Shown here piece by piece: positions 8,628 to 52,046 of a stretch of 64,000 bases of DNA. The notes below the pieces were generated by a model, which searched no databases, was not told where the DNA came from, and saw nothing but the letters and a program-made list of their open reading frames with translations. Origin of the DNA: a virus; IMG/VR virus record IMGVR_UViG_3300043411_001777, positions 25,968 to 89,967 of that record; one strand, 5' to 3'. A program made the position numbers and the translations under genes. Positions within the stretch are counted from its first letter, which is position 1. Each line of letters begins with the position of its first letter.

Positions 8628-9746
8628 TCACTTATTCCGGTTGTGCTCTGCGAAGGCGCAGAGCAGATAATGCACATCGTGCGGTGTTGTACAACGATTG
8701 TTGAACTTGCACTCGTAACAGGCATCCCCATTGGGTTCACCACAAGTGTACAGCTTCTCCCACAGAACCTGAGACCGGGTGTCCCACACCGTGGGGCCCT
8801 CCTTCCATGGAGGATTAAAGCTGGAGTTTGAAATTCGACCCTTCGCGTCAAAATAGCACGCGAACCGGCCCTCACTTCGCATAGCGAAGTCCGTATTGAC
8901 CCCCAGCTCGGGCCTGGAAATGAAGTAAGGCATCAGACCCTCACTGAAAGCGACCTGATACCCAGCTTCCTGAGCCTCACGCAATGCGGCTGGAAACTCC
9001 CTATGATAGACCGCCTTACTCGGCAGACCTTTATGCGAAGCACGGCCCACATCCGGGTAATAGGCCAGCAAAACGAGGTTCAGCGGACCGATATCCGGCT
9101 TACGCGAAATGAGCGCCCGCAGATTCGCGCAAACATCCTGATCGAAAATCAGGTGCACGTTCAACTGGATTTTAGGCAGCTTGACCCGTAGGTCACAGTA
9201 ATGCTTGACGAACCAGTCGAGGCCCTTGAAAGCGTGATAGGTCATGGCGACCCCACCACACACTTCGTTCGTGGCCTCCACGACTTCTGGGGTGAGCTTC
9301 AACCCTGCGGTTGTGTAGTTAGGCACCGTCCCCAACTCGCGCACGCTTCGGAGGATTTCGGGGAAATCGGGATGTAGGGTGGGCTCACCCCCACCAATAG
9401 CCATTTGGTAAGGCGGGGTGTCGAAACCCTTAATTACCTGAGCAGCCAGATCCTTTGGAGCGTGCTTAGACTTAGGCAGGCTGTCCATGTAGCAGTATGG
9501 GCAATTCACGGGGCATTTGCCCGTAATTTTGAGGTCTACCGTCTCTGGTACGGGTGAAAAGGCTTCCCTCCTCCAACCAAAGCGTTCGTTGAACGCTTCG
9601 CGGTCTTCTCGCTTGTAGGTGCCCCAGAAGTCTCCGTAGTAGTCCAGCTTAGGTACTTCCACTTCACGGACAATAATGCCAGTCTTTTCGTCGAAAGACG
9701 ACCGGTAGAAGCACTTATCGCCGAGCTTGAATTCCATTGTACGCAT
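8628..9746 (-). CDS. radical SAM enzyme (372 aa) with a ~75-aa N-terminal extension and a C-terminal 4-Cys cluster
   Basis: CxxxCxxC (CPVNCPYCY) is followed by the GGGEP SAM-binding motif. The C-terminal CGEPNGDACYECKFNNRC suggests an auxiliary Fe-S site. Confidence 0.8.
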   Translation of the reverse strand: MRTMEFKLGDKCFYRSSFDEKTGIIVREVEVPKLDYYGDFWGTYKREDREAFNERFGWRREAFSPVPETVDLKITGKCPVNCPYCYMDSLPKSKHAPKDLAAQVIKGFDTPPYQMAIGGGEPTLHPDFPEILRSVRELGTVPNYTTAGLKLTPEVVEATNEVCGGVAMTYHAFKGLDWFVKHYCDLRVKLPKIQLNVHLIFDQDVCANLRALISRKPDIGPLNLVLLAYYPDVGRASHKGLPSKAVYHREFPAALREAQEAGYQVAFSEGLMPYFISRPELGVNTDFAMRSEGRFACYFDAKGRISNSSFNPPWKEGPTVWDTRSQVLWEKLYTCGEPNGDACYECKFNNRCTTPHDVHYLLCAFAEHNRNK

Positions 9747-12906: not shown

Positions 12907-13611
12907 TCAGTCCACCTGTTCCAAGAGCATCCTGACTCCCTTAAATAGGGAGTCCAGTTCGTCAGAGAAACGCCGAGCCTTTTCGGAAGGCGTCACAACC
13001 TTTACCTGAGGTGTATACCGGCTCAGCTTCTCGATTGAGCGGTTGAGATTGCACCGAGCTTCAAATTCTGAGGCCAGCTTCATCTCAACCGTTTGGAAGA
13101 TCCAGGGCCGATTCGCAAACCGCTCCATAATGGACTTTCGAGTCGCCATAAAGGCGTCCTCAGACACCCACGCGAATTCTTTACGGATATTCGCCTCGTA
13201 TTGGTCGAATACCTCACGGGGAGCCGCGAAGATGGAAAGGTCACAATCCAAGACGATTTTAGCCGCTGGGTTTGCAACCACATCCTCCCGATGCCGGGTG
13301 GCCAAGATCAACTCGGCTACCAAGGCCCATTCGGGCATTGAAGCTCCGCGCATGAACTGGACCGCCAATTCGGCGGACTGTTCCTCACTCCCTGGGGACC
13401 TCACGTCCAACACAAGGTCGTGAAACCACAGCGCCAATTCAATGGCACGGCGACGATTTGGGCTTGGGAAGATCCGGTCCAAGGTGGCAAAGCACATCTC
13501 TAGGTGTGAGAGCGTGTGGTAATGCCGATGAGGCTGACGGTAAGCCGCCTCAATCGTGGCATAGAAATCCGCATGCTCTTCCCCAACCGTTTGAACCCAA
13601 CGCTTAAGCAT
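12907..13611 (-). CDS. HD-domain phosphohydrolase-like protein (234 aa)
   Basis: H..H...(27 aa)...HD arrangement (RHYHTLSHLE ... LALWFHDLV), typical of the HD superfamily. Confidence 0.55.
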   Translation of the reverse strand: MLKRWVQTVGEEHADFYATIEAAYRQPHRHYHTLSHLEMCFATLDRIFPSPNRRRAIELALWFHDLVLDVRSPGSEEQSAELAVQFMRGASMPEWALVAELILATRHREDVVANPAAKIVLDCDLSIFAAPREVFDQYEANIRKEFAWVSEDAFMATRKSIMERFANRPWIFQTVEMKLASEFEARCNLNRSIEKLSRYTPQVKVVTPSEKARRFSDELDSLFKGVRMLLEQVD

Positions 13612-13829
13612 TAGTCACGACCCCAATCATTTTTGACGTCGAAAACGATAACCCGATTGGGGTCGTCGTAATCCGGAGCATATTGAGCGAGCTTCGACTC
13701 ACCTTTTACCGCGTGGACCAGCATGAAATCATAATCGCGAGCAAGGCAAAGCCCATGCTGGTTGCACAGGGCATTATAGGCCTCAAGGAACGCATTTACC
13801 CGATCGTTTTCCATGATTCTAACCTCCAC
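13611..13829 (-). CDS. hypothetical protein (72 aa)
   Basis: ORF with an ATGA overlap onto the HD gene. Confidence 0.45.
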   Translation of the reverse strand: MEVRIMENDRVNAFLEAYNALCNQHGLCLARDYDFMLVHAVKGESKLAQYAPDYDDPNRVIVFDVKNDWGRD

Positions 13830-13866: not shown

Positions 13867-14781
13867 TCAGTAACCACCCTGAAAAGGTTTAACCACACCC
13901 TCTGCCAATGCAGAATGGAAGCGGTCAGGATATCCCTCTTCGTACATAGACTGTACAGTCTCGAAATTCTCCCACGCGAATTCACGAAACCACCCCGAGG
14001 TGATACTCGTGCACACCTTCTCATGGGCGATGTTGAAGCTCAACCGACGGTCAACACCGAAATTGAACGGGATCTGACTCCGCTCCAAAGCAAGCACTTG
14101 AGTCTCCTCAAGGACCGCCAAGAGCTGGATTTCCTTTGGCTGCTTTCGGAAGAGCTTTTTGCTGCTCAACACTTCCTGCCCATCGACCGCGAAGAACCAG
14201 TAAGCCGGCTTATCGAGGTGCTGGACCGCAATGTGCAAAGTGTCGTGATCGTACTTGTACGGCACCCCATCCCCATTGAAGAATTCCCCCTTGGAACGCT
14301 TCAGATTCGGGTGCTGGTAGGAAAGGGTTTCCTTTTCCCGAAGCTTTGGCCAATCCCCAAGAGGAGCCAAGTCCGGAGACAGCTCCCTCAGCTTGAGGAT
14401 GTCCCCCATCGTCTTACGGAAGAAGGGGGAATCCTTCTTATACCGGTGCCCAAGCTTCAGCGCTAGGAGTACCGAAAGAGGGGGGAGGTATGCCGAGATG
14501 TTCTTGCCATTTACAGGCACGGTGACAACAGGCCAGCTCTCCGTCCGGGCCATTTCCAGAAGAGTTGCAGCAGTGGACCCGGACCAGGCCAATTCCAAAT
14601 CCAGGATCTGGCCAGGAACGGACAATGCCGCATGATTCTCGTCAATGACGTGGAGGCCCGCTTCCAGGAAATTCTGGAGAGCAGGCAAACGGATTCCTTC
14701 GATGATGAAGTCTAGGTCGAGAGGGGTTCGGCCGAGATCAACACCGTGTCGCAAACACGCTTCACTTCCGACGAGCAACAT
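13867..14781 (-). CDS. Pol-beta-superfamily nucleotidyltransferase-like protein (304 aa)
   Basis: N-terminal GS-x9-DLDF (LVGSEACLRHGVDLGRTPLDLDFII) minimal NTase motif, followed by a helical C-terminal domain. Confidence 0.45.
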   Translation of the reverse strand: MLLVGSEACLRHGVDLGRTPLDLDFIIEGIRLPALQNFLEAGLHVIDENHAALSVPGQILDLELAWSGSTAATLLEMARTESWPVVTVPVNGKNISAYLPPLSVLLALKLGHRYKKDSPFFRKTMGDILKLRELSPDLAPLGDWPKLREKETLSYQHPNLKRSKGEFFNGDGVPYKYDHDTLHIAVQHLDKPAYWFFAVDGQEVLSSKKLFRKQPKEIQLLAVLEETQVLALERSQIPFNFGVDRRLSFNIAHEKVCTSITSGWFREFAWENFETVQSMYEEGYPDRFHSALAEGVVKPFQGGY

Positions 14782-14785
14782 ACGT

Positions 14786-15121
14786 TTAGCACCTTAGCGA
14801 GCTGGGCAGCCAGGTCCCAGCAACAAGCGCCCCTTGATTGTGGGGGTTAAAATAACCGTCCAAATAGTTCATCGGATCTCCAAATTGGAGATCCGTGAAA
14901 TCCACATCAATTAGAACCTTGTGCTTTTCGCATAATTCCTGCACTTCGGAACCCGTTTCTGCGATCTTCGCCAGAGCATTCAGGTATTCGGAAGCAGGGT
15001 TTTCTAATTCCTTAGCCCTCTTAACCAGAGCGTAAAGCTCCTTGAGCTTGGTTTCAAGCTCAGGTTTGATGGCTTCTGGTACGGGTGCGGACAATTCAAA
15101 GTCTATACCGGCCATGATCAC
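14786..15121 (-). CDS. paralog family P, member 1 (111 aa); conserved N-terminal F-L-SAPVP-E and C-terminal AG(T/V)W(L/I)PSSxxC-COOH
   Basis: Aligns with four other tandem paralogs. The C-terminus is VAGTWLPSSLRC. Confidence 0.6.
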   Translation of the reverse strand: MIMAGIDFELSAPVPEAIKPELETKLKELYALVKRAKELENPASEYLNALAKIAETGSEVQELCEKHKVLIDVDFTDLQFGDPMNYLDGYFNPHNQGALVAGTWLPSSLRC

Positions 15122-15663
15122 TTCCTTAGTGGTTCTCTGGTTGATTTGAACCCACCCTTGCCGCGTCGTGCGAATTGGCGAGGCGTGGTCAATGCTTCCT
15201 CAACAGGCCAGCCGTGCTCGATTCGGTCAAGAAGAGCTGAGTAGCTGAGCCCAATCTGCTTCGCCCACTTGTTGAGTGTTTGAGTAGTCCCGTTCATCGT
15301 AAGCATTCGTGGCTGTCGAGAGGGAGTGGAAACAGCCTTGTCATGGTCCCATCCGCGATAAACTCGCCCCTTAACCAGATTCCTGGTCAAGCCCTTTTCC
15401 CTCTCGACCTCTCGAAATCCTCTCTTCCTGTTGTCGACCCTAACTCGCTTTGTGTACTTCAAACATCCACACGACTTGTTTCTGAACAAGTCGTGGTATG
15501 TGAGCATGAAGTGCACACCGCAAATGCACTTCATTTCACAGACAGCGTATTTCTTGGTTGCCTTGGCTCGATTCAGCCCAAGGAATGTGGTTGTTGTGAA
15601 CGGTTTGAACCCCTTGGCCGGAAGAATGGGGGTCGGCCGCTTCTCTTTCTCCACGCTCAGCAC
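15118..15663 (-). CDS. homing-endonuclease-like DNA-binding protein (zinc-finger region plus C-terminal HTH) inserted in the paralog array (181 aa)
   Basis: Cys cluster CEMKCICG...SCGC. The C-terminal TLNKWAKQIGLSYSALLDRIEHGWPVEEAL resembles the HTH tail common in phage HNH/homing endonucleases. No clean HNH catalytic motif was seen. Confidence 0.4.
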   Translation of the reverse strand: MLSVEKEKRPTPILPAKGFKPFTTTTFLGLNRAKATKKYAVCEMKCICGVHFMLTYHDLFRNKSCGCLKYTKRVRVDNRKRGFREVEREKGLTRNLVKGRVYRGWDHDKAVSTPSRQPRMLTMNGTTQTLNKWAKQIGLSYSALLDRIEHGWPVEEALTTPRQFARRGKGGFKSTREPLRK

Positions 15664-15986
15664 CGCATTGAACTATGGAGCCAGGTTCCTGCAACACGGG
15701 CTCCCCTTACCATATCCGACTCGTAGTCGTCGTAATCCTCCCTCCGACCGAAATCGTAATCGGTGAAACTTGCGTCAAGGACGACCCCGTAGCCCTTTGC
15801 AAGCTTCTCCAGCTTTCGAGCTTGCTCAGTGACTTCCTCGCAAGCTGCCTCATAGGTGTGAACCCCCTTCTCGGCCTCGCGTGCCTTCTGCACTGCGGCG
15901 AACAGCTCCTTAACCTGGGCTTCCAGGGTGGCGGAGACTTCGTTGGGGACGGGAGCGGACAGAGAAAACGTTGGCGTATCAGACAT
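15657..15986 (-). CDS. paralog family P, member 2 (109 aa)
   Basis: MSDTPTFSLSAPVPNEV...FTDYDFG...ARVAGTWLHSSMRC. Confidence 0.6.
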   Translation of the reverse strand: MSDTPTFSLSAPVPNEVSATLEAQVKELFAAVQKAREAEKGVHTYEAACEEVTEQARKLEKLAKGYGVVLDASFTDYDFGRREDYDDYESDMVRGARVAGTWLHSSMRC

Positions 15987-15998
15987 AGATTAAACCTC

Positions 15999-16358
15999 TT
16001 AGCAGCGGTATGAACTGGGAACCCAAACACCGGCCAGAACCGCACCGGCCATGGTGTCGAAGTAGGTGAAAGAGTCGTTTCCGAATGGGGTGTATTTGGA
16101 AAAGCTAACGTCAACGACCACATTGTGGTCGTTTGCAAGGGTCTCCATTTTTTCTGCGACTTCTGCAACGTGGCGAACCGCTTTGATATAGCGGCTCATC
16201 AACCTATTAGCCGCTTCATGCGAATTCCTAGCCTCGGATTCCATCGCCTGAGCACCCTGCATAGCAAGGAGCAAAGCCTGAAATTGGGCTTCAAAGGTCG
16301 CTTTGACCTCTTCAGGAAGGGGGGCGGATAGGTTAAACGTGTGTGTTTCTTCTGACAT
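15999..16358 (-). CDS. paralog family P, member 3 (119 aa)
   Basis: FNLSAPLPEEV...VLAGVWVPSSYRC. Confidence 0.6.
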   Translation of the reverse strand: MSEETHTFNLSAPLPEEVKATFEAQFQALLLAMQGAQAMESEARNSHEAANRLMSRYIKAVRHVAEVAEKMETLANDHNVVVDVSFSKYTPFGNDSFTYFDTMAGAVLAGVWVPSSYRC

Positions 16359-16368
16359 TCGGTCTTCC

Positions 16369-16689
16369 TTAGCAGGACATTGAGCTAGGAAGCCAAACCC
16401 CGGCTAGGCTGGCCCCGGAAGCCTCGTCGGCTTGACCCCAAAAATAGTCTGGGTGCCCAAAGACATAATCGGAGAAATTCGTCTCAACGAATGCTTTGTG
16501 TTTGTTCAAGAATGCGTGAAGGTCTGTGCCTAGATTGGCTACCTTCTTAAGGGTCTTGAACAGTTCCGCCTGTTCCTGAGCTTTCTGAACTTCCGCGTAC
16601 AAGGCCTTAACCTTGGCCTCCAGCTCAAGCTGGATTTCGGGGGAAAGGGGGCCCTTATTTGCTTCTACTGTAAAAGTCAGCGGTTCCAT
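16369..16689 (-). CDS. paralog family P, member 4 (106 aa)
   Basis: LTFTVEAN...FSDYVFG...SLAGVWLPSSMSC. Confidence 0.6.
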   Translation of the reverse strand: MEPLTFTVEANKGPLSPEIQLELEAKVKALYAEVQKAQEQAELFKTLKKVANLGTDLHAFLNKHKAFVETNFSDYVFGHPDYFWGQADEASGASLAGVWLPSSMSC

Positions 16690-16692
16690 AGA

Positions 16693-17013
16693 TCAGCACT
16701 CCATCGAGCTAGGAATCCAAGTACCTGCGATACGGGCACCTGTGCCCTCATCATGATCGAAGTATGACTTTCCATTGAATGGATAGTCACAGAAATTCGT
16801 TTTCACGTTGAGCTTGTGCTCAGCAGCGAAAGCGTTAAGCTTTACGCCCAGCGCGGCCACCTCATGGAGGGCCTCGAAATAGCCCTCCAAAGCTTTAGCC
16901 TTTTGGACAGCAGCGAACAGTCCCTTAACCTGCGATTCCAGCTCCGCCTGTACGGCGGGGGTAATCGTGGTTCCAGAGTCATGCCCCAGAGTAAACGTAG
17001 GAGTATCAATCAT
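16693..17013 (-). CDS. paralog family P, member 5 (106 aa)
   Basis: Start MIDTPTFTL aligns with the N-terminus of member 2. Its ATG lies 2 nt after the tnpB stop (TGAaaATG). The C-terminus is IAGTWIPSSMEC. Confidence 0.6.
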   Translation of the reverse strand: MIDTPTFTLGHDSGTTITPAVQAELESQVKGLFAAVQKAKALEGYFEALHEVAALGVKLNAFAAEHKLNVKTNFCDYPFNGKSYFDHDEGTGARIAGTWIPSSMEC

Positions 17014-17015
17014 TT

Positions 17016-18281
17016 TCAGCCTTTGTCGCAAGAAGTTCCGCAAGATAATGACCGTTGCTCCAAACTACCCCGATCAGGGTTCTGTTTCGATTCCTGCTTC
17101 AACGAAGATTGCCGGCTATCCGGGCTTACACCCCCTCCACAAGCGTTTTGAGCCTCCGGCCAACTGGCGGCGGCTAGGATATTGATCGCTGCATTCGTGT
17201 CCGCGTTGCAGCCAAAACCACAACTCAAACACTTAAACACCGACTGGGAAGCCCGATTACCAGCGTCAACGTGCCCACACGATGAGCATCGCTGACTTGT
17301 GTATTGCGGCGGAACAGCCACAATTTCACAACCGTAACGCTTCCCCTTATACTCAAGCTGACGCCGAAACTCTCCTAACGACGCATCATGCATTACACGG
17401 TTCAGCCCACGCTTTCGCGTGCCTCCAGACTTCACCATGTTCTTAACCTTCAAAGCCTCAATTGCAATTTGACCGTGGCTTTTGGTCAACATTGTTGATG
17501 CCTTATGTAAGGCATCTCTTCTTACGTTCCGTACCCTGCGGTGCAAACCGGCTCGCTTGGCCTTCGCCTTGCGGCGGTTGTTGCTCTCAGGCTGCTTACG
17601 GCTCAACGCCTGGTCGAAACGCTTCAGTTTTTTCTTGACTTTCCCAAGCGCCTTCGGGTTCTCAATCATGGTGCCATCGGAGAGCGCCGCCAGTATGGCC
17701 ACGCCCATATCGAGACCGACGGACGGAAATCCATTTGGTTCGGCTTCGGGAAAATCCGGTCCGACAACTGAAACGAACCATCGTCCGCAGTCCTCGGTGA
17801 TTGACGCCTGAGAATGCTTGCCGAGAGGAAGGTATCCTTTCTCTCCCGGCATGAGTCGAACACGGCCCAAGCTGGGCAACTTGATACTGTCCTCACGAGC
17901 GATGATGTGGTCTGTTAACCTGAAGCCGCCGATTCCACGGTTCTTGTTCTTAAACTTTGGGTAGCCGGGTTTTTCGCCTTTCTTGACGCGGTCGAAGAAG
18001 CGTTTGAAGGCTTGGTCAAGGTCACGTAGGGCTTCTTGGGGAGCGCATTTGCTGGCTTCGTACATCCAAGGCACGCCACCATCTTCGATGGGTTTCTTTT
18101 TGAGAAGGTTCAATTCGCGGTGAAGGTCGATCGCGCTGGGGGTTTTGCCCGTCGCCTTGTAAGCCTCTTGCTTTTTCGCCAGTCCCCAATTCCAGGCCCA
18201 TCGGGCATTGCCGGCTGCTTGAAGCATTTGGCGCTTCTGCCCTTCGGAGGGCCGAAGTTCTGCTCGGTAAGCGATTCTCAT
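17016..18281 (-). CDS. tnpB: TnpB-type RNA-guided endonuclease (IS200/IS605 OrfB family; 421 aa), catalytically intact
   Basis: Helical N-terminal region, RuvC-I D (VGLDMGV), RuvC-II E (IAIEAL), zinc ribbon CSSCGH...CLSCGF, RuvC-III D (NADTNAAINI), and an extended C-terminal tail. No tnpA neighbour. Confidence 0.85.
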   Translation of the reverse strand: MRIAYRAELRPSEGQKRQMLQAAGNARWAWNWGLAKKQEAYKATGKTPSAIDLHRELNLLKKKPIEDGGVPWMYEASKCAPQEALRDLDQAFKRFFDRVKKGEKPGYPKFKNKNRGIGGFRLTDHIIAREDSIKLPSLGRVRLMPGEKGYLPLGKHSQASITEDCGRWFVSVVGPDFPEAEPNGFPSVGLDMGVAILAALSDGTMIENPKALGKVKKKLKRFDQALSRKQPESNNRRKAKAKRAGLHRRVRNVRRDALHKASTMLTKSHGQIAIEALKVKNMVKSGGTRKRGLNRVMHDASLGEFRRQLEYKGKRYGCEIVAVPPQYTSQRCSSCGHVDAGNRASQSVFKCLSCGFGCNADTNAAINILAAASWPEAQNACGGGVSPDSRQSSLKQESKQNPDRGSLEQRSLSCGTSCDKG

Positions 18282-24252: not shown

Positions 24253-25983
24253 TTGATGAAACGATATGCCGGCCACCTCCCAGAGGACTTTTGGCCCAAA
24301 CAAGAGAGCGAACTCAATAAGCTTTTAGCGTTAAGAGTACCCCATTACCCAGGGTCTGTTTACGGGGAAATGTTCAGCCTATTGTTTTTCAACAAGCAGT
24401 TGAAAACCACCCTCGGGACCAACAATCCCGAAGTTGTTAAACTGTGTCAATCAATGCATGATAGCATTGTAGAACATGCTGATAGGTTTGTGGCATTTCA
24501 AAATGAGATTGATGATGCTGGCAAGCCTAATAACCTTGGTGCATTCATTGCTGGGGACATCATTTCGAGGGTTGCCGAACTTTATGCAAAGCAATTCAGA
24601 ACCTTGGGGGACTGTCTAACAGAGGCTTGGCGTCTAAACATAATGGCTGTGGTTCAGCGCGCGGGTAAGCTGAAAAAGCAGGCTCCCCCCGAAGTTCTAG
24701 CCGCATACAAGGCCAAGGACTTCCAAACGGTTAGGGATTGGCTTGAGTCTGTTGCCACTTTGGGCCTGGCCTCTACACCCAAATACCTCATGGTTTACGT
24801 GTTTGACTACGTTGGGCCGTCTTTCCAGCTCTTGTTTGAGCAGTTGAAGGATGCTCTGGCAAAGCAAGCAACCTCCGGAGAGGATGATATATACCGCGAG
24901 TTTGACATGAATGGGTTGAAGGTTGTCATAGACGACACTACGGTCACCCCGGCTCAAACTCGGCAATATGTGAAATACATCGACGAGGCTTACAACCGGT
25001 TTCGCGCTAAGGGCATGGGGAAGATTTGGTATGGCACCCTCTTCATCTCCTGTAAAGCCTGTGGAGGAGTCAATAACCTAAACCCAGAACTAGGAACCGC
25101 AGCCCATTACAACATCCCCAAGGATTGGGTTCGGATATTCGAGCGGCCTGGCGCAGAGATAACGGAGTATATCGCGCACGAGCTAGGGCATCGCTACTGG
25201 TTCAAGAAGATGAGCCAGTCTCAGCGGACCAAATTTGAGCAATTGATTAGGGTCTACGACCGGCCCCACCCCAAACTAGCCCCAGACCGCTTGGACATCA
25301 AACAGTTAGATTCTGCCCTCGTATCGATGCGTGACCTTGCCACGAAGCTTTATTTCGAGTTGGAGGGTCACTTAAAGGTCTTCATGAAGACCCGAATAGC
25401 ACGGCCCAAGGCCATTGCGCAATTTACCAAACTTTTCGAGCAGGAAGTCAAGAAGTACGATGCAGGGTTGCGCGAAATCATTAGCGATCTAAGCACGCTC
25501 GCCCTCGTCAGGGAATACGAGAAGGCAGAGGGCTGGAAATCAAAAGCGAAGATGGACGAGGTTTTGCAGCAGTTAACACAAGCCGTGTCTGACCTTAACA
25601 TCAGGACTTTGCCGGAAGAGGATTTCAAGGCTCTTCGAGAGAAATGGGTGTGGTATGCGGCATCCCGGGCTGAAAATGCCAAGCTCTTCCTTTTTTCTTA
25701 TCTCTCCGGGGCGTCGGTCTATATTGAGAAAGAACAGCGTAGAGTTGAGTTGGACCGTCTCCATGAGAGAGAGGAGGCTTTCCTAGCGGATCCACGGCCG
25801 GTTATCCCGGTAAGTGACTACGGGAAGAACAACGCAGCGGAGGCTTTTGCCGAAGTGTTTGCATGGTACATCATGGGTAAGGACTTGACATCCGACCAGA
25901 AGGATTCGTTCCGTGCGGTGTTGGCAGGGAGCACCCTGGCACAGCGCATTGCTGCATTGTGGAGACGTAAGCATGGACATTGA
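24253..25983 (+). CDS. large protein with a C-terminal HExxH zincin-like metallopeptidase module (576 aa); paralog family Z, member 1
   Basis: IAHELGHRYWF with an E about 19 aa downstream. The C-terminal NAAEAFAEVFAWY motif is shared with the 25973-27400 and 55525-56607 genes. Confidence 0.6.
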   Translation: MMKRYAGHLPEDFWPKQESELNKLLALRVPHYPGSVYGEMFSLLFFNKQLKTTLGTNNPEVVKLCQSMHDSIVEHADRFVAFQNEIDDAGKPNNLGAFIAGDIISRVAELYAKQFRTLGDCLTEAWRLNIMAVVQRAGKLKKQAPPEVLAAYKAKDFQTVRDWLESVATLGLASTPKYLMVYVFDYVGPSFQLLFEQLKDALAKQATSGEDDIYREFDMNGLKVVIDDTTVTPAQTRQYVKYIDEAYNRFRAKGMGKIWYGTLFISCKACGGVNNLNPELGTAAHYNIPKDWVRIFERPGAEITEYIAHELGHRYWFKKMSQSQRTKFEQLIRVYDRPHPKLAPDRLDIKQLDSALVSMRDLATKLYFELEGHLKVFMKTRIARPKAIAQFTKLFEQEVKKYDAGLREIISDLSTLALVREYEKAEGWKSKAKMDEVLQQLTQAVSDLNIRTLPEEDFKALREKWVWYAASRAENAKLFLFSYLSGASVYIEKEQRRVELDRLHEREEAFLADPRPVIPVSDYGKNNAAEAFAEVFAWYIMGKDLTSDQKDSFRAVLAGSTLAQRIAALWRRKHGH

Positions 25984-41376: not shown

Positions 41377-43110
41377 GTGAACGAAGAAATCCCAGAGAAC
41401 CTCCCCGCCATTGTTGACGTGATTCGTGCCGAAACCGTCGCGGATACAAGCGAACCCGTCGCAATTGGCCAGTGGTTCTGGCGCCGGGCCAAGCCCGAAC
41501 GCTATCTCGTCTGCGTTACCCATGTAGGTTCAAACTTCGCTATGGTTGAAACCGTGGGAGGCCGAACCGAACGAATTCTATTGGAAGATTGGGAACGCCA
41601 TTGTCGAAAGGCAAAGGCCCCTAATCGCTATATCGACACCCAGGTTGGCTTCCACAAGGAACGAGTGCAAGAGCTTCTGTCCGAAGTGCAGGCCGTCACG
41701 GCCCGACTCGGACTTCAGCCTACTGAAGCGCTCGGCAATAGCACGTCCAGCACCAGCCTCGCAGTCGTGCATGGTGTGGGTGACGTCCAGGCCCACAAGC
41801 TCGAATTGATCGAGGCGAAGAGCAAGACACTCCCCGAGCTTTTCAAGGAAATCGAGGGCCAGCATGCCGCTATGGCCATGTGGATGAAAGCCTCACTCAT
41901 CCCCATGAAGGCAATTGCAGCTCAGGCTAGGCAGGCAACGTCGAGCATTGACAGTCGGATCATGATGGTCGAGCTATACGCGGGCTTGACTGAGGAACTG
42001 ACCCAGATCCTGGACGGGGAGCCCGCCCCAAATGACACGCGCATCCACCTGTTTCAGCGCCAGCATTACATGGATGAGGAATGCCTGGCTCAATATGAAG
42101 CCGGGGGCATGGATTTCCGTGGCATCGGTGCTTTTGACAAGTGGCTTGCCCGCCCCCAAAACCTGAATCGTATCCTGCCTTTCCCACGCAGTATCGTTGC
42201 ATTTCAGGTACGCCGAAAGGCTAAGGATTACGGCGAGGCCCGCTCACTGTCTGAAGCGATCCGCTTCTGGGAAATGGGAGAAGCCGACAAGCTGACGTTC
42301 CTGTATATCCGAAACGGAGATACCCTTCACCGATTGAGCACGGCTGTTGAATTCGGCGAGAATCTTTTCCCGGACCATGAGAATGAGGAACTTCTGGGCG
42401 AGGGTCCGAAGTGGATCGTACAGAGTAGCTTTGGATTCGAGAGGGTCATTTCAGAGCGCGAGCATGACGCAGTCATGCTAAAGCGGGAAGAAGAAAACGC
42501 AAAATACAAGCGTGAGCTGGCGGCGTGGAAATCAGAGTCTGAAAAGACGCGCAGTCATTTTGAGCCATATAAACCATATGGGCGGGACACCCATGTTCCC
42601 CTCTCACGTGACAGCGTCTATTACGATGATGCTATGCGGTCGATGGCGGAGAGTGCGGTTGCACACAACCGGATTGCCGTCGTAATCCAGGGGCTTCTGG
42701 ACCGCTCGATTGCGCTCCACCCTCACCCTCCCTGGCAGCTTTGGACCCCGGAAGGTTTTACGGGCGCGCTGGAACTCGTTTTTGACGCGTCCCGGGGCAT
42801 TGCTAATGGGGAGCCGCCGAACTTTGAGGCGTACTTTGCCCGGCTTGGAGAGAGCATTAAGGCTGGCTCCATGGTGATTGGAGCGCAGGAGCTGTGGGAA
42901 CGCGCAGAAGCTGAAAAGGAAAACGACCGGCGACGGAGAAGTTATCGATACCGTTCGGACGAGTGTTACGAGAAGTCCAGTTTCCCTATGGGGGAAGCCC
43001 TCCAAAGAAGTACGGATGCAACAACGTTCACTGCGGTAATCCGTTCGCCTACGTCGAAAAGGACTGTCCAACTTCGTGCCCAAGGTGTGGCGCCAGTATG
43101 GGACGGCTAA
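41377..43110 (+). CDS. large hypothetical protein (577 aa) immediately upstream of rtcB. Its C-terminal ~50 codons overlap an alternative-frame zinc-ribbon ORF.
   Basis: Long ORF with no recognisable motifs. Confidence 0.5.
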   Translation: MNEEIPENLPAIVDVIRAETVADTSEPVAIGQWFWRRAKPERYLVCVTHVGSNFAMVETVGGRTERILLEDWERHCRKAKAPNRYIDTQVGFHKERVQELLSEVQAVTARLGLQPTEALGNSTSSTSLAVVHGVGDVQAHKLELIEAKSKTLPELFKEIEGQHAAMAMWMKASLIPMKAIAAQARQATSSIDSRIMMVELYAGLTEELTQILDGEPAPNDTRIHLFQRQHYMDEECLAQYEAGGMDFRGIGAFDKWLARPQNLNRILPFPRSIVAFQVRRKAKDYGEARSLSEAIRFWEMGEADKLTFLYIRNGDTLHRLSTAVEFGENLFPDHENEELLGEGPKWIVQSSFGFERVISEREHDAVMLKREEENAKYKRELAAWKSESEKTRSHFEPYKPYGRDTHVPLSRDSVYYDDAMRSMAESAVAHNRIAVVIQGLLDRSIALHPHPPWQLWTPEGFTGALELVFDASRGIANGEPPNFEAYFARLGESIKAGSMVIGAQELWERAEAEKENDRRRRSYRYRSDECYEKSSFPMGEALQRSTDATTFTAVIRSPTSKRTVQLRAQGVAPVWDG

Positions 43111-43157
43111 CCGAATCCGAAATACTCTACTATGTAGAGTTTGTTCCTGGAGACTAG
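42963..43157 (+). CDS. zinc-ribbon ORF (64 aa) in an alternative frame. It is either a separate overlapping gene or the true C-terminus of the 41377 gene reached by a frameshift.
   Basis: CNNVHCGN-x15-CPTSCPRCG, GTG start. It ends 2 nt before the rtcB ATG. Confidence 0.35.
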   Translation: MLREVQFPYGGSPPKKYGCNNVHCGNPFAYVEKDCPTSCPRCGASMGRLTESEILYYVEFVPGD

Positions 43158-43159
43158 AA

Positions 43160-44386
43160 ATGCGTGTAATTCAGTCCAATGAGATGCGAGTCCCCGTCAA
43201 GATTTGGGACGGCGGCGGAAACGTTCCTTTCGAGGACGCCGTTATCGGGCAGATTTCCAATGCTGCCACCCTTCCCATCATCCACAACCATGTTGCGCTT
43301 ATGCCCGACGGGCATTTTGGCATCGGAGCCGCGGTCGGATCAGTAATCCCCACCGTCAACGCCATCATCCCTGCGGCTGTAGGCGTGGACATTGGTTGCG
43401 GTATGGCTGCGGTTCAGACTTCCCTGAACGCCTCCCAGCTTCCAGACTCACTCGCTGCACTTCGCTCTGCGATTGAGCAGGCGGTTCCCCATGGCCGTTC
43501 CGACAACGGTGGGTCGAATGACGTGGGGTCCTTCCGGGGCAACTCCCTTCCTGCAACCCACGCAAAGGCATGGGCGGATGAACTGGCCGTGGGGTACGCA
43601 AGGATCGCATCGAAGTATCCCAAGCTCGGCTCTGGTAATTCGGCCAACCACCTCGGAACTCTCGGAACCGGTAATCATTTCACAGAGTTGTGCCTTGACG
43701 AGTCGGGCCAGGTTTGGGTGATGCTGCATTCGGGAAGCCGCGGGGTTGGTAACCGTTTCGGTATGCATTTCATCGCCTTGGCGAAGGAGGATATGATCAA
43801 GGCTGGCCTGACGGCGGTCGACAAGGATCTGTCCTACTTGACCGAGGGGACCCAGCATTTCAACGATTATGTTGAGGCCGTGGATTGGGCGCAGAAGTAC
43901 GCCCGAATCAACCGCCAGCTCATGATGGGGGAGGTTATCCGCGTGATGCGTGATTTCCTCCCACCATTCACGCTGACCGAGATGGCGGTCAACTGCCACC
44001 ACAACTATGTGGCGCGCGAGCACCACTTTGGACAGGATGTCTGGCTCACCCGTAAGGGGGCTGTTTCTGCTGCACAAGGGCAGTTGGGCATCATCCCTGG
44101 ATCGATGGGTGCCAAGAGCTTCATCGTTCGTGGGAAGGGCAACCCCGAGTCCTTCCATAGCTGTTCGCACGGTGCGGGTCGGTCTATGTCTCGGGGTGAG
44201 GCCAAGCGCCGTTTCTCACTTGAGGACCACGAGAAGGCCACTGTTGGGGTGGAGTGCCGAAAGGATGTCGGAGTCATTGATGAGACCCCGGCTGCGTACA
44301 AGTCGATTGACAACGTTATGGCGGCTCAGACGGATCTCGTCGAGATTGTCTACACACTCAAGCAGGTTCTTTGTGTGAAGGGGTAA
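43160..44386 (+). CDS. rtcB: RNA 3'-phosphate/2',3'-cyclic-phosphate ligase RtcB (408 aa)
   Basis: Start MRVIQSNEMRVPVKIWD, with GGAGA upstream. The protein also carries the RtcB hallmarks HNHVALMPDGHFGIG, GCGMA, GTLGTGNHF, LHSGSRGVGN and CHHNY. Confidence 0.85.
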   Translation: MRVIQSNEMRVPVKIWDGGGNVPFEDAVIGQISNAATLPIIHNHVALMPDGHFGIGAAVGSVIPTVNAIIPAAVGVDIGCGMAAVQTSLNASQLPDSLAALRSAIEQAVPHGRSDNGGSNDVGSFRGNSLPATHAKAWADELAVGYARIASKYPKLGSGNSANHLGTLGTGNHFTELCLDESGQVWVMLHSGSRGVGNRFGMHFIALAKEDMIKAGLTAVDKDLSYLTEGTQHFNDYVEAVDWAQKYARINRQLMMGEVIRVMRDFLPPFTLTEMAVNCHHNYVAREHHFGQDVWLTRKGAVSAAQGQLGIIPGSMGAKSFIVRGKGNPESFHSCSHGAGRSMSRGEAKRRFSLEDHEKATVGVECRKDVGVIDETPAAYKSIDNVMAAQTDLVEIVYTLKQVLCVKG

Positions 44387-45693: not shown

Positions 45694-45998
45694 CCAATGA
45701 TATCCCAAACGGGTATTTCCGACAGGATATGACTGCTCCTAGCATTGGGGGCATAGACCCAGTTCTTCTTGCTCATTTCGCGTACTTCTTTGCTAGAGCA
45801 ACAAAACGCCTCGCAACCGCCACTGTTCCCCAAGAACTTCAAGAAGCGGATTCCTCCGCAAGTTTCCACGGGCGAAGACTACGCTCAATCCTCGGAAAGC
45901 TTCCGAATGATGACTTACTTGAAAGATGGGCGCTAGCCGGCGAGCAGATTCACAAGATTTGCACCCAAATCAGAAACGACCGAAAGGACAACAAATGA
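45690..45998 (+). CDS. hypothetical protein, paralog of 45379-45693 (102 aa)
   Basis: Tandem paralog; its stop overlaps the purA-like start (ATGA). Confidence 0.45.
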   Translation: MTNDIPNGYFRQDMTAPSIGGIDPVLLAHFAYFFARATKRLATATVPQELQEADSSASFHGRRLRSILGKLPNDDLLERWALAGEQIHKICTQIRNDRKDNK

Positions 45999-47128
45999 TC
46001 AGTTTCGCGGACATTGTAGTAGACCTCCGTTACGGCGACTGTGGCAAAGGCGCCGTAGTTTACGAGCTTTGCAAGGACCCCCGTTACGACATCGTCCTCC
46101 GGTGGAATGGGGGGTCCAACGCTGGCCACACGATTTACCACAATGGGGTGAAATTCGCCACCCACCTCATTCCCACTGGAATCTTCCACGGTAAGCTTTG
46201 TGTGATCGGGTCCGGTTGTGTGGTTAACCCGCGCAAGTTTTTTGAGGAGCTTGAGTCCCTTCGCAATATGGGCATTGAAACCGAGGGTAAGGTTTTCATT
46301 GCCAAGAACGCCCATATTGTGACCGAAGAGCATATTGCCTCCGAACAAGCCGAATCCAAAATCGGCACCACTAAACAGGGGATTGGCCCTGCCTACGCTG
46401 CAAAGCACGCCCGTACTGGCATTCGAGCAGAGTCCGTCCCCGAGCTGGCACCTTACCTCGTTGACCTCTATGAGCTGTTCTACAGCTCAACACCCTATGG
46501 AGTCCTAGCCGAAGGGGCACAGGGGTTCGACATTGATATTGACTGGTGTGCAGAATACCCTTTTAGCAGCTCATCCATTGCGACCGTTGCAGGAGCTATT
46601 CAGAATGGCATTCCTTGGGACAAGGTTCGCAAGGTGTTCGGGGTGGCTAAGGCTTACGACACTTATGTGGGCTCCCGGGACTTTGAACCCAAGAACGCGA
46701 TTTTCCAAAAGCTGCGCGAGCTGGGCTCTGAATTTGGGGCTACTACAGGCCGTCCTCGCCAGTGCAATTGGTTGGACCTATATGGGTTGACCAAGGCGAT
46801 CGAAGTGAACAGCGTTACAGACGTGGTCATTTCCAAGATGGATATCCTACGGGAGCTGAACAAACAGACTGACAACCAGAACTGGTGCTTTGCGCATAGC
46901 CGCGAATCCCTTCCTGGGGAGGATTCATTCGTGGCTTATCTCAGCGATCACCTTATGAAGCTGCAAAGCGTGAAACGCCTCCATTGGAGGAATTCGCCAA
47001 CAGATTCAATGGGGAATGGGACGATGTTCTGTCGGGGCACAAGCCGAACTGACAAAACGCAATTAGAAATCATGCGTGACATTCTCCGTCAAGAGCAATT
47101 TAGGTACATTTCCAAGGAAGGGCTATGA
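45995..47128 (+). CDS. purA: short adenylosuccinate synthetase-family protein (PurA-like; 377 aa); PurZ candidate not excluded
   Basis: GDCGKGA P-loop (PurA GDEGKGK), NGGSNAGHT, GIGPAYAAK, GATTGRPRQCNWLDL, and SKMD (a TKLD-like guanine motif). It is about 50 aa shorter than bacterial PurA. AAAGGA RBS. Confidence 0.8.
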   Translation: MISFADIVVDLRYGDCGKGAVVYELCKDPRYDIVLRWNGGSNAGHTIYHNGVKFATHLIPTGIFHGKLCVIGSGCVVNPRKFFEELESLRNMGIETEGKVFIAKNAHIVTEEHIASEQAESKIGTTKQGIGPAYAAKHARTGIRAESVPELAPYLVDLYELFYSSTPYGVLAEGAQGFDIDIDWCAEYPFSSSSIATVAGAIQNGIPWDKVRKVFGVAKAYDTYVGSRDFEPKNAIFQKLRELGSEFGATTGRPRQCNWLDLYGLTKAIEVNSVTDVVISKMDILRELNKQTDNQNWCFAHSRESLPGEDSFVAYLSDHLMKLQSVKRLHWRNSPTDSMGNGTMFCRGTSRTDKTQLEIMRDILRQEQFRYISKEGL

Positions 47129-47634: not shown

Positions 47635-48387
47635 ATGGATTCAAAGTTTCGTGTTCTTCCTCCCGAGCACCTACTTTCTACGGGGCTTCTGTTCGAGATC
47701 AACAGAGCCGTCCTGCACAAGTTCGGACTGGCCCTCGCATACACCACGGACGACACTGATGCGTCCAAACCAGCCTATCTGTCTATCCTAAAAGTGGATG
47801 ACCCCGAGGGGCTAATCTTCGGCGAAGACCTACGTTCTTCGGGCTACCGCAAGTACAAGGACTTTCTTAACGAAGAAACCCCTAAGCTTGCGTGTCGTCT
47901 GGGTACCTTTGGTTGGCTAGATCAGCCTGGGAATGTCGTGACTAAGATAGAGCAATTTACAGGGGAGTACCGTTGGTTGTCCAACTTCTTCGATGTCGAA
48001 GTGGTTTTGGATGGCGTGACGTACAGCTCCACTGAGCACGCTTACCAAGCGGCGAAGACTCTTGACCCGATTGAGCGGGAACGTGTCCGATTGGCCCCCA
48101 CGCACGGGGCCTCCAAGCGGGAGGGGCGAAAGATTACCCTCCGCCCCGGCTGGGACAGCATCAAAAACGATGTCATGTTGGACCTTCTTCGGCAGAAGTT
48201 CGCGCGTCCGGACTTGAGGCGGCTTCTCGACGAGACTGGGGAAACTCAGCTTGTTGAGGGCAATCACTGGCATGATGTGTGGTTTGGCGTGTGTAGCGGC
48301 AAGTGTCGTAGTCCTCATGCTAAGCCTGAGGGTGCCAATCATCTAGGCCGAATGCTCATGCAGGTCCGTGACGAGAACAGGAAATGA
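47635..48387 (+). CDS. NADAR (YbiA/DUF1768)-domain protein with an N-terminal extension (250 aa)
   Basis: YRWLSNFFDVEVVLDGVTYSSTEHAYQAAK ... GWDSIKNDVMLDLLRQKFA ... ETGETQLVEGNHWHDVWFG matches the NADAR signature. Confidence 0.7.
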   Translation: MDSKFRVLPPEHLLSTGLLFEINRAVLHKFGLALAYTTDDTDASKPAYLSILKVDDPEGLIFGEDLRSSGYRKYKDFLNEETPKLACRLGTFGWLDQPGNVVTKIEQFTGEYRWLSNFFDVEVVLDGVTYSSTEHAYQAAKTLDPIERERVRLAPTHGASKREGRKITLRPGWDSIKNDVMLDLLRQKFARPDLRRLLDETGETQLVEGNHWHDVWFGVCSGKCRSPHAKPEGANHLGRMLMQVRDENRK

Positions 48388-48677
48388 AACCGATTACACC
48401 CCAAGAGGTTGTCCGCAAGGTTAAACCTATCCCTCCCGAAATCATTGAGGCTTTCAATGATTTGATCAGGGAGAACATTTCCGGTAATTCGGCCAAAGTC
48501 CTGCTGCGACAAGCTATTTCACGGATAGCCCAGAAGACTGGGTTTAACGAACAAAAGATTCTTCGTTGTTGGTGGTTAGACAACGTGGAACCCATCTTTC
48601 GAGAAGCAGGTTGGGATGTGACATATCGGGACTCACACTACTACGAATCGTATTACCTTTTCACGGTGAAGAAGTGA
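48384..48677 (+). CDS. hypothetical protein, paralog of 48674-48982 (97 aa)
   Basis: KPITPQEV...IPPE(I/V)IE(A/V)FNDLI(R/A)EN(I/F)SGNSA...FTVKK. Confidence 0.5.
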   Translation: MKPITPQEVVRKVKPIPPEIIEAFNDLIRENISGNSAKVLLRQAISRIAQKTGFNEQKILRCWWLDNVEPIFREAGWDVTYRDSHYYESYYLFTVKK

Positions 48678-48982
48678 AACCAATTACACCCCAAGAAGTA
48701 GCTGACCGCAAGGTTAAGTCTATCCCACCCGAAGTCATTGAGGTTTTCAATGACTTGATTGCGGAGAACTTTTCCGGCAATTCCGCAACCGTCACGGTGA
48801 CTCAAGCAGTCACCCGCATCAAAAAGAGGATGGGGAGGCGGACTAATGATGAACAAATCGTTGAACGGGGCTGGTTGGACATTGAGCCTATCTTTCGAGA
48901 AACGGGTTGGGATGTGGTATACGACCAGCCTGGGTACAACGAATCCTACGAGGCGAACTACACTTTCACGGTGAAGAAGTGA
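48674..48982 (+). CDS. hypothetical protein, tandem paralog of 48384-48677 (102 aa), GTG start overlapping the previous stop
   Basis: GTGA overlap. The protein ends TFTVKK. Confidence 0.5.
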   Translation: MKPITPQEVADRKVKSIPPEVIEVFNDLIAENFSGNSATVTVTQAVTRIKKRMGRRTNDEQIVERGWLDIEPIFRETGWDVVYDQPGYNESYEANYTFTVKK

Positions 48983-51068: not shown

Positions 51069-52046
51069 ATGACGGTCGAATCTAGGACACTGATTCAGTG
51101 GCTCCAGGCGCATGGCTTTACGGAGGTGCCGAAGGCCGGGTCTAGTCACCATAAGTGGCAACACGAAAGCACAAAAGCTAAGGTCACGGCTATTCCAACG
51201 CAACGGGAAATGACCCCAAACACACTCACCCTCTGTTTGCGTGAAATCCAACGTGCGGGTTTCCGAAAGCAGGCAGTCCGAAAGGAATTATTCGCGATGC
51301 AAGCAGGCTCTGCAAAGTTGCAAGTTAGCACTATCGACCTGAAGAAGCCAGTTGAGGCCCCAGTAGCTCAATCGGCTCCGTTGATTCAGGCGGAAACCTC
51401 GGCTCCGTCGGCTCCAGTAACCACGGCTAACGTGGCCTCACCCTCTCCTCTCCAGAGCCGTGTTGATGCTGTGCTCAGGCGTGCAGGCGAAGTCATTGGT
51501 CTACCGGCCTTCGCGAAATTCAAGACCACACCAGAGACGGTTGGGCTTTTGACGGCTCTCCTTGAGATCCTGACTCAGGTGGAGGATCTCTTTTTGGAGA
51601 CCGCGTTGAAGGCTGAGGCTCCCAAAACGGAGCTTGCGCCCCTTCCCACATTTACTATGGTCCCCACCCCCTTTGCACTCCCTACCAAGCTCGTTCCCAT
51701 TGGGATCCTCACGGAGGAACACCTTCGGGATGAGGCGCGGTCCCTTCAGCTCCCTAATGGGATGCCGCTGAATGAACTTCGTGAACAGGTTCGAGAGCTT
51801 CTTCTCACTGAAAAGTGGCTCCCTCTCGGGTCAACTTTTCCGGGGTATGAGCTGTCAAATCACAAGCGAATCCGCTCCTATCGAGAGCGAGGATTTCCAA
51901 CCACGCATCGCCGAAAGCTTGCTAAGATTCGGATGCCCGTCGAAGGACGGATTACCCTTCGTGGTCCGGACAAGAAAACCACCAATATCCTGTTGACCAA
52001 CATGGATGCCCTTTGGGCAGATTTGGAAAAGTCAGCGGCCCGGTAG
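51069..52046 (+). CDS. protein with an N-terminal HicA/YcfA-like domain fused to a low-complexity linker and a basic C-terminal domain (325 aa)
   Basis: LIQWLQAHGFTEVPKAGSSHHKWQH...KVTAIP....TLTLCLREIQRAGF matches the HicA toxin fold signature (GSHH). An Ala/Pro-rich linker follows. Confidence 0.5.
   Translation: MTVESRTLIQWLQAHGFTEVPKAGSSHHKWQHESTKAKVTAIPTQREMTPNTLTLCLREIQRAGFRKQAVRKELFAMQAGSAKLQVSTIDLKKPVEAPVAQSAPLIQAETSAPSAPVTTANVASPSPLQSRVDAVLRRAGEVIGLPAFAKFKTTPETVGLLTALLEILTQVEDLFLETALKAEAPKTELAPLPTFTMVPTPFALPTKLVPIGILTEEHLRDEARSLQLPNGMPLNELREQVRELLLTEKWLPLGSTFPGYELSNHKRIRSYRERGFPTTHRRKLAKIRMPVEGRITLRGPDKKTTNILLTNMDALWADLEKSAAR

Follow-up and report, generated by a model that had tools for sequence, protein, structure and literature searches.

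A conserved phage gene pair of a MenT-like nucleotidyltransferase and small acidic proteins with an invariant C-terminal tail

The 64,000-nucleotide stretch of viral DNA considered here (positions 25,968 to 89,967 of the IMG/VR record IMGVR_UViG_3300043411_001777, referred to below as the window) carries on its minus strand five related genes for small proteins that end in a nearly identical, cysteine-terminated tail, followed by a gene for a nucleotidyltransferase. An earlier note on this DNA had drawn attention to the small genes and mentioned the nucleotidyltransferase merely as a neighbour. The adjacency itself is correct, but this description understates the most informative feature of the locus, as the linkage is conserved across very different phage families: one MenT-like nucleotidyltransferase and one to five small acidic proteins with the invariant tail form a conserved gene pair. 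The genes concerned are listed here from upstream to downstream.

16693-17013, minus strand: paralog 1, 106 amino acids, ATG at 17013, 2 nucleotides past the tnpB stop codon; tail AGTWIPSSMEC
16369-16689, minus strand: paralog 2, 106 amino acids, with not a single Arg residue; tail AGVWLPSSMSC
15999-16358, minus strand: paralog 3, 119 amino acids, with a 15-residue insertion separating two helices; tail AGVWVPSSYRC
15657-15986, minus strand: paralog 4, 109 amino acids, the copy used for the structure model; tail AGTWLHSSMRC
14786-15115 (ATG) or to 15121 (GTG), minus strand: paralog 5, 109 or 111 amino acids, directly upstream of the nucleotidyltransferase gene; tail AGTWLPSSLRC
13867-14781, minus strand: nucleotidyltransferase, 304 amino acids; Pfam DUF7275 (E 1.8e-59) and DUF7277 (E 6.7e-4), phrog_2141 (E 1e-87)

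The listing of open reading frames (ORFs) and a MAFFT alignment bear out that the five minus-strand genes, which encode proteins of 106-119 amino acids with pairwise identities of 33-47%, are related. A profile built from the five copies and run against all six frames of the window recovers only the same five ORFs (E 1e-44 to 1e-52), with the next match at E = 3. Common to all copies is the ending AG(T/V)W(L/I/V)(P/H)SSxxC, directly followed by the stop codon, and W, both S residues and the terminal C are among the invariant columns of the alignment. Some details of the first description need amendment. The residue after W had been given as L or I and is in fact L, I or V, while the N-terminal string SAPVP, said to be shared, occurs in just three of the five copies. 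Likewise, the array is not strictly tandem, because an HNH-endonuclease-like ORF of 181 amino acids separates copies 4 and 5. The placement of the nucleotidyltransferase, an HD-domain protein and tnpB on the strand of the array was read correctly. The gaps are tiny, with each copy starting within a few bases of the preceding gene and only 5 nucleotides between the end of paralog 5 and the start codon of the nucleotidyltransferase gene. A TAAGG(A) string lies within the 25 nucleotides preceding the starts of copies 3 and 5 and of the nucleotidyltransferase gene, and TAAGAGG takes its place before copy 4. A scan of the operon for promoters and terminators gave no more sites than shuffled sequence. 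Since no nucleotide-level repeat was found between the array copies in the window, the duplications must be old.

Neighbourhoods were compared in 12 cultured phages and 6 metagenomic contigs, in which all stop-to-stop ORFs were scanned for the tail. Sixteen loci were seeded by a full-length enzyme, i.e. the window, nine loci of cultured phages (L007-L015) and six metagenomic ones (L005, L019, L021, L023-L025), and 15 of them contain between one and five tail-bearing ORFs on the strand of the enzyme gene and within 5 kb of it, usually abutting it. Among the cultured phages, there are five such ORFs in Pseudomonas phage psageK4e, four in Xanthomonas phage BUDD, three each in Escherichia phage tuntematon, Citrobacter phage Moon and Stenotrophomonas phage Moby, two each in Acinetobacter phage Berthold and Acidovorax phage ACP17, and one each in Klebsiella phage fENko-Kae01 and Aeromonas phage AS-sw. 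The metagenomic loci carry five (L023), three (L021 and L025), two (L005) or one (L024). On L023, a contig of 368 kb, the five copies lie directly upstream of the enzyme gene, and at L005 the homolog of the 304-amino-acid enzyme comes after two small genes, a first relative and a more divergent second copy with the ending HWIPSSVCW. The linkage also holds in the reverse direction: at all four loci reached by tblastn with the small proteins (Ralstonia phages RsoM2USA and RSP15, Erwinia phage Kaldavass and Pseudomonas phage VCM), the enzyme gene is no more than about 1.2 kb away, and its product matches the enzyme profile at E 1e-103 to 1e-129. In most cases the small genes precede the enzyme gene, and in BUDD and Moby they follow it. 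Altogether, the linkage spans three subfamilies of the Straboviridae, the Stephanstirmvirinae, Otagovirus, Menderavirus, Busanvirus, the Ackermannviridae and several jumbo phages, which establishes the two components as a conserved pair.

The enzyme of this pair is widespread, with tblastn matches in 721 cultured-phage records and 1820 database homologs. Its N-terminal domain is a minimal nucleotidyltransferase of the type found in MenT and in aminoglycoside nucleotidyltransferases (ANT), corresponds to DUF7277 and contains the motif LLVGSEA...DLDF, while the helical C-terminal domain of about 190 amino acids, DUF7275, carries the conserved string KVCTSITSGWFREFAWENF. An AlphaFold2 model reached a mean predicted local distance difference test score (pLDDT) of 95.4, and the closest solved structures of the enzyme are the tRNA-modifying toxins MenT1 and TglT/MenT3 as well as the aminoglycoside nucleotidyltransferase ANT(2''). 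In 91 homologs, G5 and D24 never vary, and at least 90% of the sequences retain S6, D22, E61 and E63. The window enzyme combines the MenT-type fold with the catalytic motif hG[GS]x9-13Dh[DE]h and a third acidic residue, and since this minimal nucleotidyltransferase signature is conserved across the homologs, the phage enzyme is probably active. Membership of DUF1814/AbiEii was not found at the sequence level: Pfam (E up to 0.1) returned only DUF7275 and DUF7277, and PADLOC, NCBIfam and a sequence search of the PDB returned nothing.

Two side observations concern the enzyme. Its residue Cys257, within the string KVCTSITSGW, is near-invariant in the subfamily with tail-bearing neighbours, and three homologs with a shortened N-terminal domain, from Vibrio phage nt-1 and two actinophages (L016-L018), lack the Cys of this string and have no tail-bearing ORFs nearby. 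This pattern, in a small sample that is not phylogenetically independent, hints at thiol chemistry or a metal site shared with the terminal Cys of the small proteins. In addition, RNA ligase genes, at some loci together with a polynucleotide kinase gene, lie within a few kb of the enzyme gene in several unrelated phages (L005, L014, L016, L027 and L028), which is compatible with a role of the enzyme on RNA or tRNA ends.

The small proteins had not been recognised as members of any family in the earlier note. Indeed, no characterised family in Pfam, NCBIfam, PADLOC or the PDB matches the five proteins, but the PHROGs collection offers a link: the C-terminal end of phrog_899 (annotated 'unknown function') is matched by four of them, each time up to the last position of the profile. 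These matches are weak (E 1.2e-4, 9.6e-4, 3.2e-3 and 1.5e-2), and paralog 5 gave none at E up to 0.1. The tie to this family comes from short-form members in cultured phages, which match phrog_899 strongly, with E down to 1.4e-13. Judged by these profile matches, the window genes appear to be a long, divergent branch of the catalogued but uncharacterised phage family PHROG 899, whose members, annotated as 'hypothetical protein', are encoded by hundreds of cultured phages, among them T4-like, rV5-like, Otagovirus and jumbo phages. The shared features comprise the W-x-x-S-S-x-x-C ending, for example in tuntematon gp232, gp234 and gp235 and in the three small proteins encoded upstream of the Moon nucleotidyltransferase, an N-terminal amphipathic helix, an acidic composition, and tandem arrays adjoining the same nucleotidyltransferase. 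The window proteins depart from the catalogued members in several respects: they measure 106-119 amino acids instead of about 60-95, form a complete hairpin of two helices along with two short strands, do not contain the YGMGG motif, and have Pro at position -5, replaced by His in one copy. Two other assignments were discarded. A near-threshold match of one copy to Rpf1_C (20.2 bits, cutoff 21.2) is confined to the helical region, does not recur in the other copies and is regarded as coiled-coil noise, and the JGI name 'FdhE' for paralog 5 is unsupported by any family search.

Few relatives of the long form were found. An exhaustive HMMER search of 1.84 billion cluster representatives yielded only four true remote relatives, of 101-110 amino acids. 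A word-indexed protein search returned the window's own proteins only and, with a profile of nine sequences, added just these four. Neither blastn with the locus nor tblastn with paralog 3 gave a match in cultured phages. A pattern scan of IMG/VR with the five-copy profile confirmed nothing, and literature searches on DUF7275/DUF7277 and on C-terminal cysteine combined with phage terms brought up nothing relevant. The four remote relatives end in AGTWVPSSLGC, FGCWMPSSMEC, AQTWVPSSIGC and AGVWLPSGMEESC, i.e. they keep the tail though the rest of the protein is merely 20-30% identical. The earlier note had made the meaning of the motif depend on its conservation in homologs elsewhere, and it is indeed retained in every distant homolog found.

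For a statistical view of the tail, 53 members were collected over about 318 kb of loci. Of these members, 51 end in Cys and two in CW; among the 51, W occupies position -7 in 39, S position -4 in 42 and S position -3 in 40. In a set of 5810 ORFs, 38 occurrences of the strict pattern W..S[SN]..C-stop were counted, compared with 0.04 expected from amino-acid composition. The emphasis that had been placed on a Cys at the extreme end needs qualification, since some relatives carry one to three residues after it (two end in CW and one in CNGY), so that a free Cys carboxylate is usual and not obligatory. Moreover, in three short-form relatives the motif occurs a second time inside the protein, as W-x-S-S-x-C. 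Phages of Escherichia, Acinetobacter, Pseudomonas, Xanthomonas and Ralstonia as well as soil metagenomes share an almost unchanged tail. A distinct subtype ending in W-(I/M)-P-S-S-(V/I)-C-W was seen at L005 (2339-2683), L021 (455-781), L022 (271-597) and L006 (from 1094, a truncated copy at the contig end). Among the copies at L005, L021 and L022, this subtype lies nearest to the nucleotidyltransferase gene, and the window has none of it.

The remainder of the protein is far more variable. The model of copy 4 (built from nine sequences, mean pLDDT 76.6) begins with a short strand and two long helices paired as a hairpin (residues 15-40 and 42-65); after another strand, an acidic linker that is disordered leads to the short helical tail with the motif. 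Fold and sequence searches with the small protein returned only generic or designed helical bundles and hairpins. The proteins are acidic, with isoelectric points of 4.6-5.2 for the window copies and about 4.0-4.5 in the relatives tested. Identities amount to 33-47% within the window array and 34-49% within the five-copy array of L023, as opposed to 16-31% between genomes. As identity within a genome thus exceeds that between genomes, the amplification to five copies took place independently in at least two lineages, and the five window genes are lineage-specific duplicates of a widespread family of small phage proteins. The synonymous substitution rate (dS) between the window copies is saturated (1.8 or more) or undefined, so that a comparison with the non-synonymous rate (dN/dS) is uninformative on positive selection.

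The nearest characterised system is MenAT1 of Mycobacterium tuberculosis or AbiE. MenT toxins add nucleotides to the 3' ends of tRNAs, and the 68-amino-acid helical antitoxin MenA1 neutralises MenT1, which it contacts by a long helix, its C-terminal residues being dispensable (PMC10435456). The phage enzyme retains the fold and the catalytic G-S...D-x-D...E pattern of MenT1 and AbiEii and, as in MenAT1, where it neutralises the enzyme, a small helical protein is encoded beside it. Yet, the phage enzyme differs from MenT/AbiEii (DUF1814) in lacking sequence-level membership and from MenT in its extra conserved helical C-terminal domain of about 190 amino acids. Furthermore, neither MenA1 nor AbiEi resembles the small proteins, and an antitoxin of known type (COG5340/AbiEi or MenA1) is missing. 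The small proteins occur in one to five copies, whereas MenAT1 has one antitoxin, and they conserve their C-terminal tail, whereas that of MenA1 is dispensable. Finally, the genes are carried by lytic phages and not in a bacterial toxin-antitoxin locus, and both toxicity and tRNA modification are only putative for the phage system.

A different kind of precedent is offered by GlnD acting on PII and by the MNT antitoxin acting on the HEPN toxin, where a small protein encoded nearby receives a nucleotide on a hydroxyl side chain. The parallel is conceptual only and extends to the same broad enzyme fold; GlnD, GlnE and MNT show no sequence or specific structural similarity among the top structure matches of the phage enzyme. 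In contrast to HEPN toxins, the small proteins lack the Rx4-6H motif and any conserved R...H pattern in the alignment (paralog 2 is devoid of Arg altogether), and no Pfam HEPN family matches them.

In light of these comparisons, the small proteins may be cognate partners of the adjacent MenT-like DUF7277-DUF7275 nucleotidyltransferase, a proposal whose chances of being right or wrong appear evenly balanced. The conserved tail W-x-(P/S/A)-S-S-x-x-C would physically engage the enzyme, and the variable acidic two-helix bodies would differ among the copies. Among phages of unrelated hosts, conservation is far stronger in the tail than in the body, and the enzyme, too, is highly conserved, so that recognition of the tail by the enzyme is the most economical reading. 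The biological purpose might be host takeover or counter-defence early in infection. Conceivably, the partners act in either of two ways. They could be antitoxin-like regulators or pseudo-substrates that restrain the enzyme, as MenA1 does with MenT1, or else true acceptors, with a Ser hydroxyl of the tail receiving the nucleotide. Regulation seems slightly favoured, given the MenA1/MenT1 parallel, the acidity of the small proteins and the fact that their genes precede the enzyme gene at most loci, while the conserved Ser-Ser pair and the preference of such enzymes for hydroxyl groups speak for retaining the acceptor variant.

Several points speak against a partnership. At L019 the enzyme gene has no tail-bearing ORF within 5 kb, and the reverse test took in four loci only. 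Both genes reside in early-gene-like regions packed with small ORFs, so their synteny could in part be a matter of position. For a toxin-antitoxin pair, as many as five partners per enzyme would be unusual. Besides, the analogy to MenA1 does not account for the conserved tail, since MenA1 binds via its long helix and can dispense with its C-terminal residues.

Some of these points equally bear on the alternative in which the small proteins work on their own as effectors of host takeover or anti-defence: their acidic bodies would bind varied host targets with the tail serving as a warhead or as a peptide for host-protein recognition, and their adjacency to the enzyme would reflect no more than a shared early-gene neighbourhood. 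Typical traits of counter-defence families in phages are seen here, namely small, acidic, helical proteins, diverged multi-copy arrays and separate amplification in two lineages; the surroundings are dense with small hypothetical ORFs, and the L019 enzyme manages without an adjacent copy. However, a merely shared neighbourhood fits poorly with adjacency in 19 of 20 loci from unrelated phage families, with differing other neighbours and with the small genes on either side of the enzyme gene, and a tail that is nearly invariant across very different hosts suits a conserved phage-encoded partner better than fast-evolving host targets. This alternative is therefore possible but doubtful.

If the small proteins are partners of the nucleotidyltransferase, the contact might go beyond binding. 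The MenT-like enzyme may covalently modify the invariant tail of these diversifying small acidic proteins in large lytic phages of many families, either by Ser nucleotidylation or by ring formation involving the terminal Cys. Such a modification appears unlikely on present grounds; if true, phages would possess a new pathway of protein modification that serves host takeover or counter-defence.

A further idea sees in the small proteins the precursors of a ribosomally made and post-translationally modified product with W-x-x-S-S-x-x-C as the core, for instance via a nucleotidyltransferase-activated Ser that is converted into dehydroalanine and captured by the Cys thiol to form a lanthionine-like ring. 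Several precursor-like genes do adjoin one enzyme gene, three relatives carry the motif twice in the manner of multi-core precursors, and the Ser-Cys spacing of i+3 or i+4 matches that of lanthionine and aminovinylcysteine (AviCys) rings. ANT- and MenT-type enzymes, moreover, act on hydroxyl acceptors, as is in part evident from the descriptions of the matched structures. All the same, the idea is improbable: cyclase, dehydratase, protease and exporter families were not found in the flanking genes with Pfam, PHROGs and NCBIfam, an invariant would-be core attached to a variable, folded would-be leader of about 95 amino acids is the reverse of typical precursors, and we know of no precedent for nucleotidylation-driven dehydration. 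The radical S-adenosylmethionine (SAM) gene at 8628-9746, 5 kb off, was considered as a candidate maturase and rejected, as its product lacks a SPASM domain and the gene was not found at the other loci.

That the proteins are virion, internal-head or scaffold components with the tail as a packaging or processing signal is highly improbable, since, despite the occurrence of paralogous internal-protein families in large myoviruses and a homolog (P0013) about 2.5 kb from a Gp23-like capsid gene in opposite orientation, all other loci place the genes among nucleotide-metabolism and early-type genes and not in structural modules, the fENko-Kae01 family member ENKO_111 lacks the annotation 'identified with LC-MS/MS' given to several of its neighbours, and no structural PHROG or Pfam family matches.

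Should the linkage of the small proteins and the nucleotidyltransferase be functional, it would represent an overlooked module in hundreds of well-studied phages, in which an enzyme related to the tRNA-poisoning toxins of bacteria is joined by one to five small proteins with a common eight-residue tail. Among the carriers are the phAPEC8 group of E. coli phages, T4-like phages, phages of Acinetobacter and Pseudomonas used for therapy and biocontrol, and several jumbo phages. A function for the tail would annotate many 'hypothetical' early genes and could reveal how phages use or restrain an enzyme of the toxin type. The main value lies in a testable, widespread phage module, which culturable E. 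coli phages carry, and not in anything unique to the window.

The genes around the module in the window, and others that characterise the genome, are the following.

17016-18281, minus strand: TnpB, 421 amino acids, with HTH_OrfB_IS605, OrfB_IS605 and Cas12f1-like TNB domains; solitary, directly upstream of the array
15118-15663, minus strand: HNH-endonuclease-like ORF, 181 amino acids; phrog_3377 (E 7e-16); between paralogs 4 and 5, overlapping the end of paralog 4 by 7 nucleotides
13611-13829, minus strand: uncharacterised ORF, 72 amino acids, between the nucleotidyltransferase and the HD protein; not a member of the tail family
12907-13611, minus strand: HD-type phosphohydrolase, 234 amino acids; phrog_19425
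8628-9746: radical-SAM protein, no SPASM match
43076-44386: RtcB RNA ligase; phrog_1075 (E 4.5e-144)
45926-47128: adenylosuccinate-synthetase-like gene of the PurZ type; phrog_1211; hints at 2-aminoadenine DNA
51069-52046: ORF of 325 amino acids whose N-terminus matches the 'toxin' PHROG phrog_353

The tnpB gene had been named as a partner of the array in one operon. It does lie on the same strand, but both tnpB and the HNH ORF are present at none of the related loci read and therefore fall outside the conserved module. TnpB is encoded by a mobile-element gene. No TnpA gene was seen near it in the phage genome, and since its stop codon lies 2 nucleotides ahead of the paralog 1 ATG, a 3' guide RNA and a transposon end, if present, would extend into the beginning of the array. 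An Rfam search of the whole window gave no match and thus nothing that identifies an RNA partner of TnpB. The HNH ORF resembles a free-standing homing endonuclease inserted into the array and, being absent from every related locus read, is probably a later arrival. HD hydrolases are encoded near the module also at BUDD, Moby, ACP17 and L025, yet this linkage is loose because the proteins belong to different families and occur at some loci only.

Elsewhere, a small basic protein with the motif GKWGRGRWEHGT(K/R)KGPGRR is encoded near long-form arrays at L005 (1585-1920), L006 (504-767) and L021 (2113-2340) and was not seen in the window. On L023, a gene for a TonB-dependent receptor (221-2281) lies a few kb upstream of the five-copy array, and a similar beta-barrel fragment (1-792) is found on the short contig L004, which carries the relative P0010; as such a receptor is unusual for a phage, the nature of both contigs is uncertain.

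The window belongs to a JGI contig of 206,089 bp. The gene content, with RtcB, the PurZ-type adenylosuccinate-synthetase-like gene, a DNA methyltransferase and the radical-SAM protein, fits a large phage; no tRNA genes were found in the window. At 48381-48982 on the plus strand lies a second and far younger tandem duplication, composed of two units of about 295 nucleotides with 78-90% nucleotide identity and associated with the ORFs 48384-48677 and 48566-48982. Near the start of the window, at 140-219, a 37-nucleotide sequence occurs twice with 97% identity and a spacing of 43 nucleotides.

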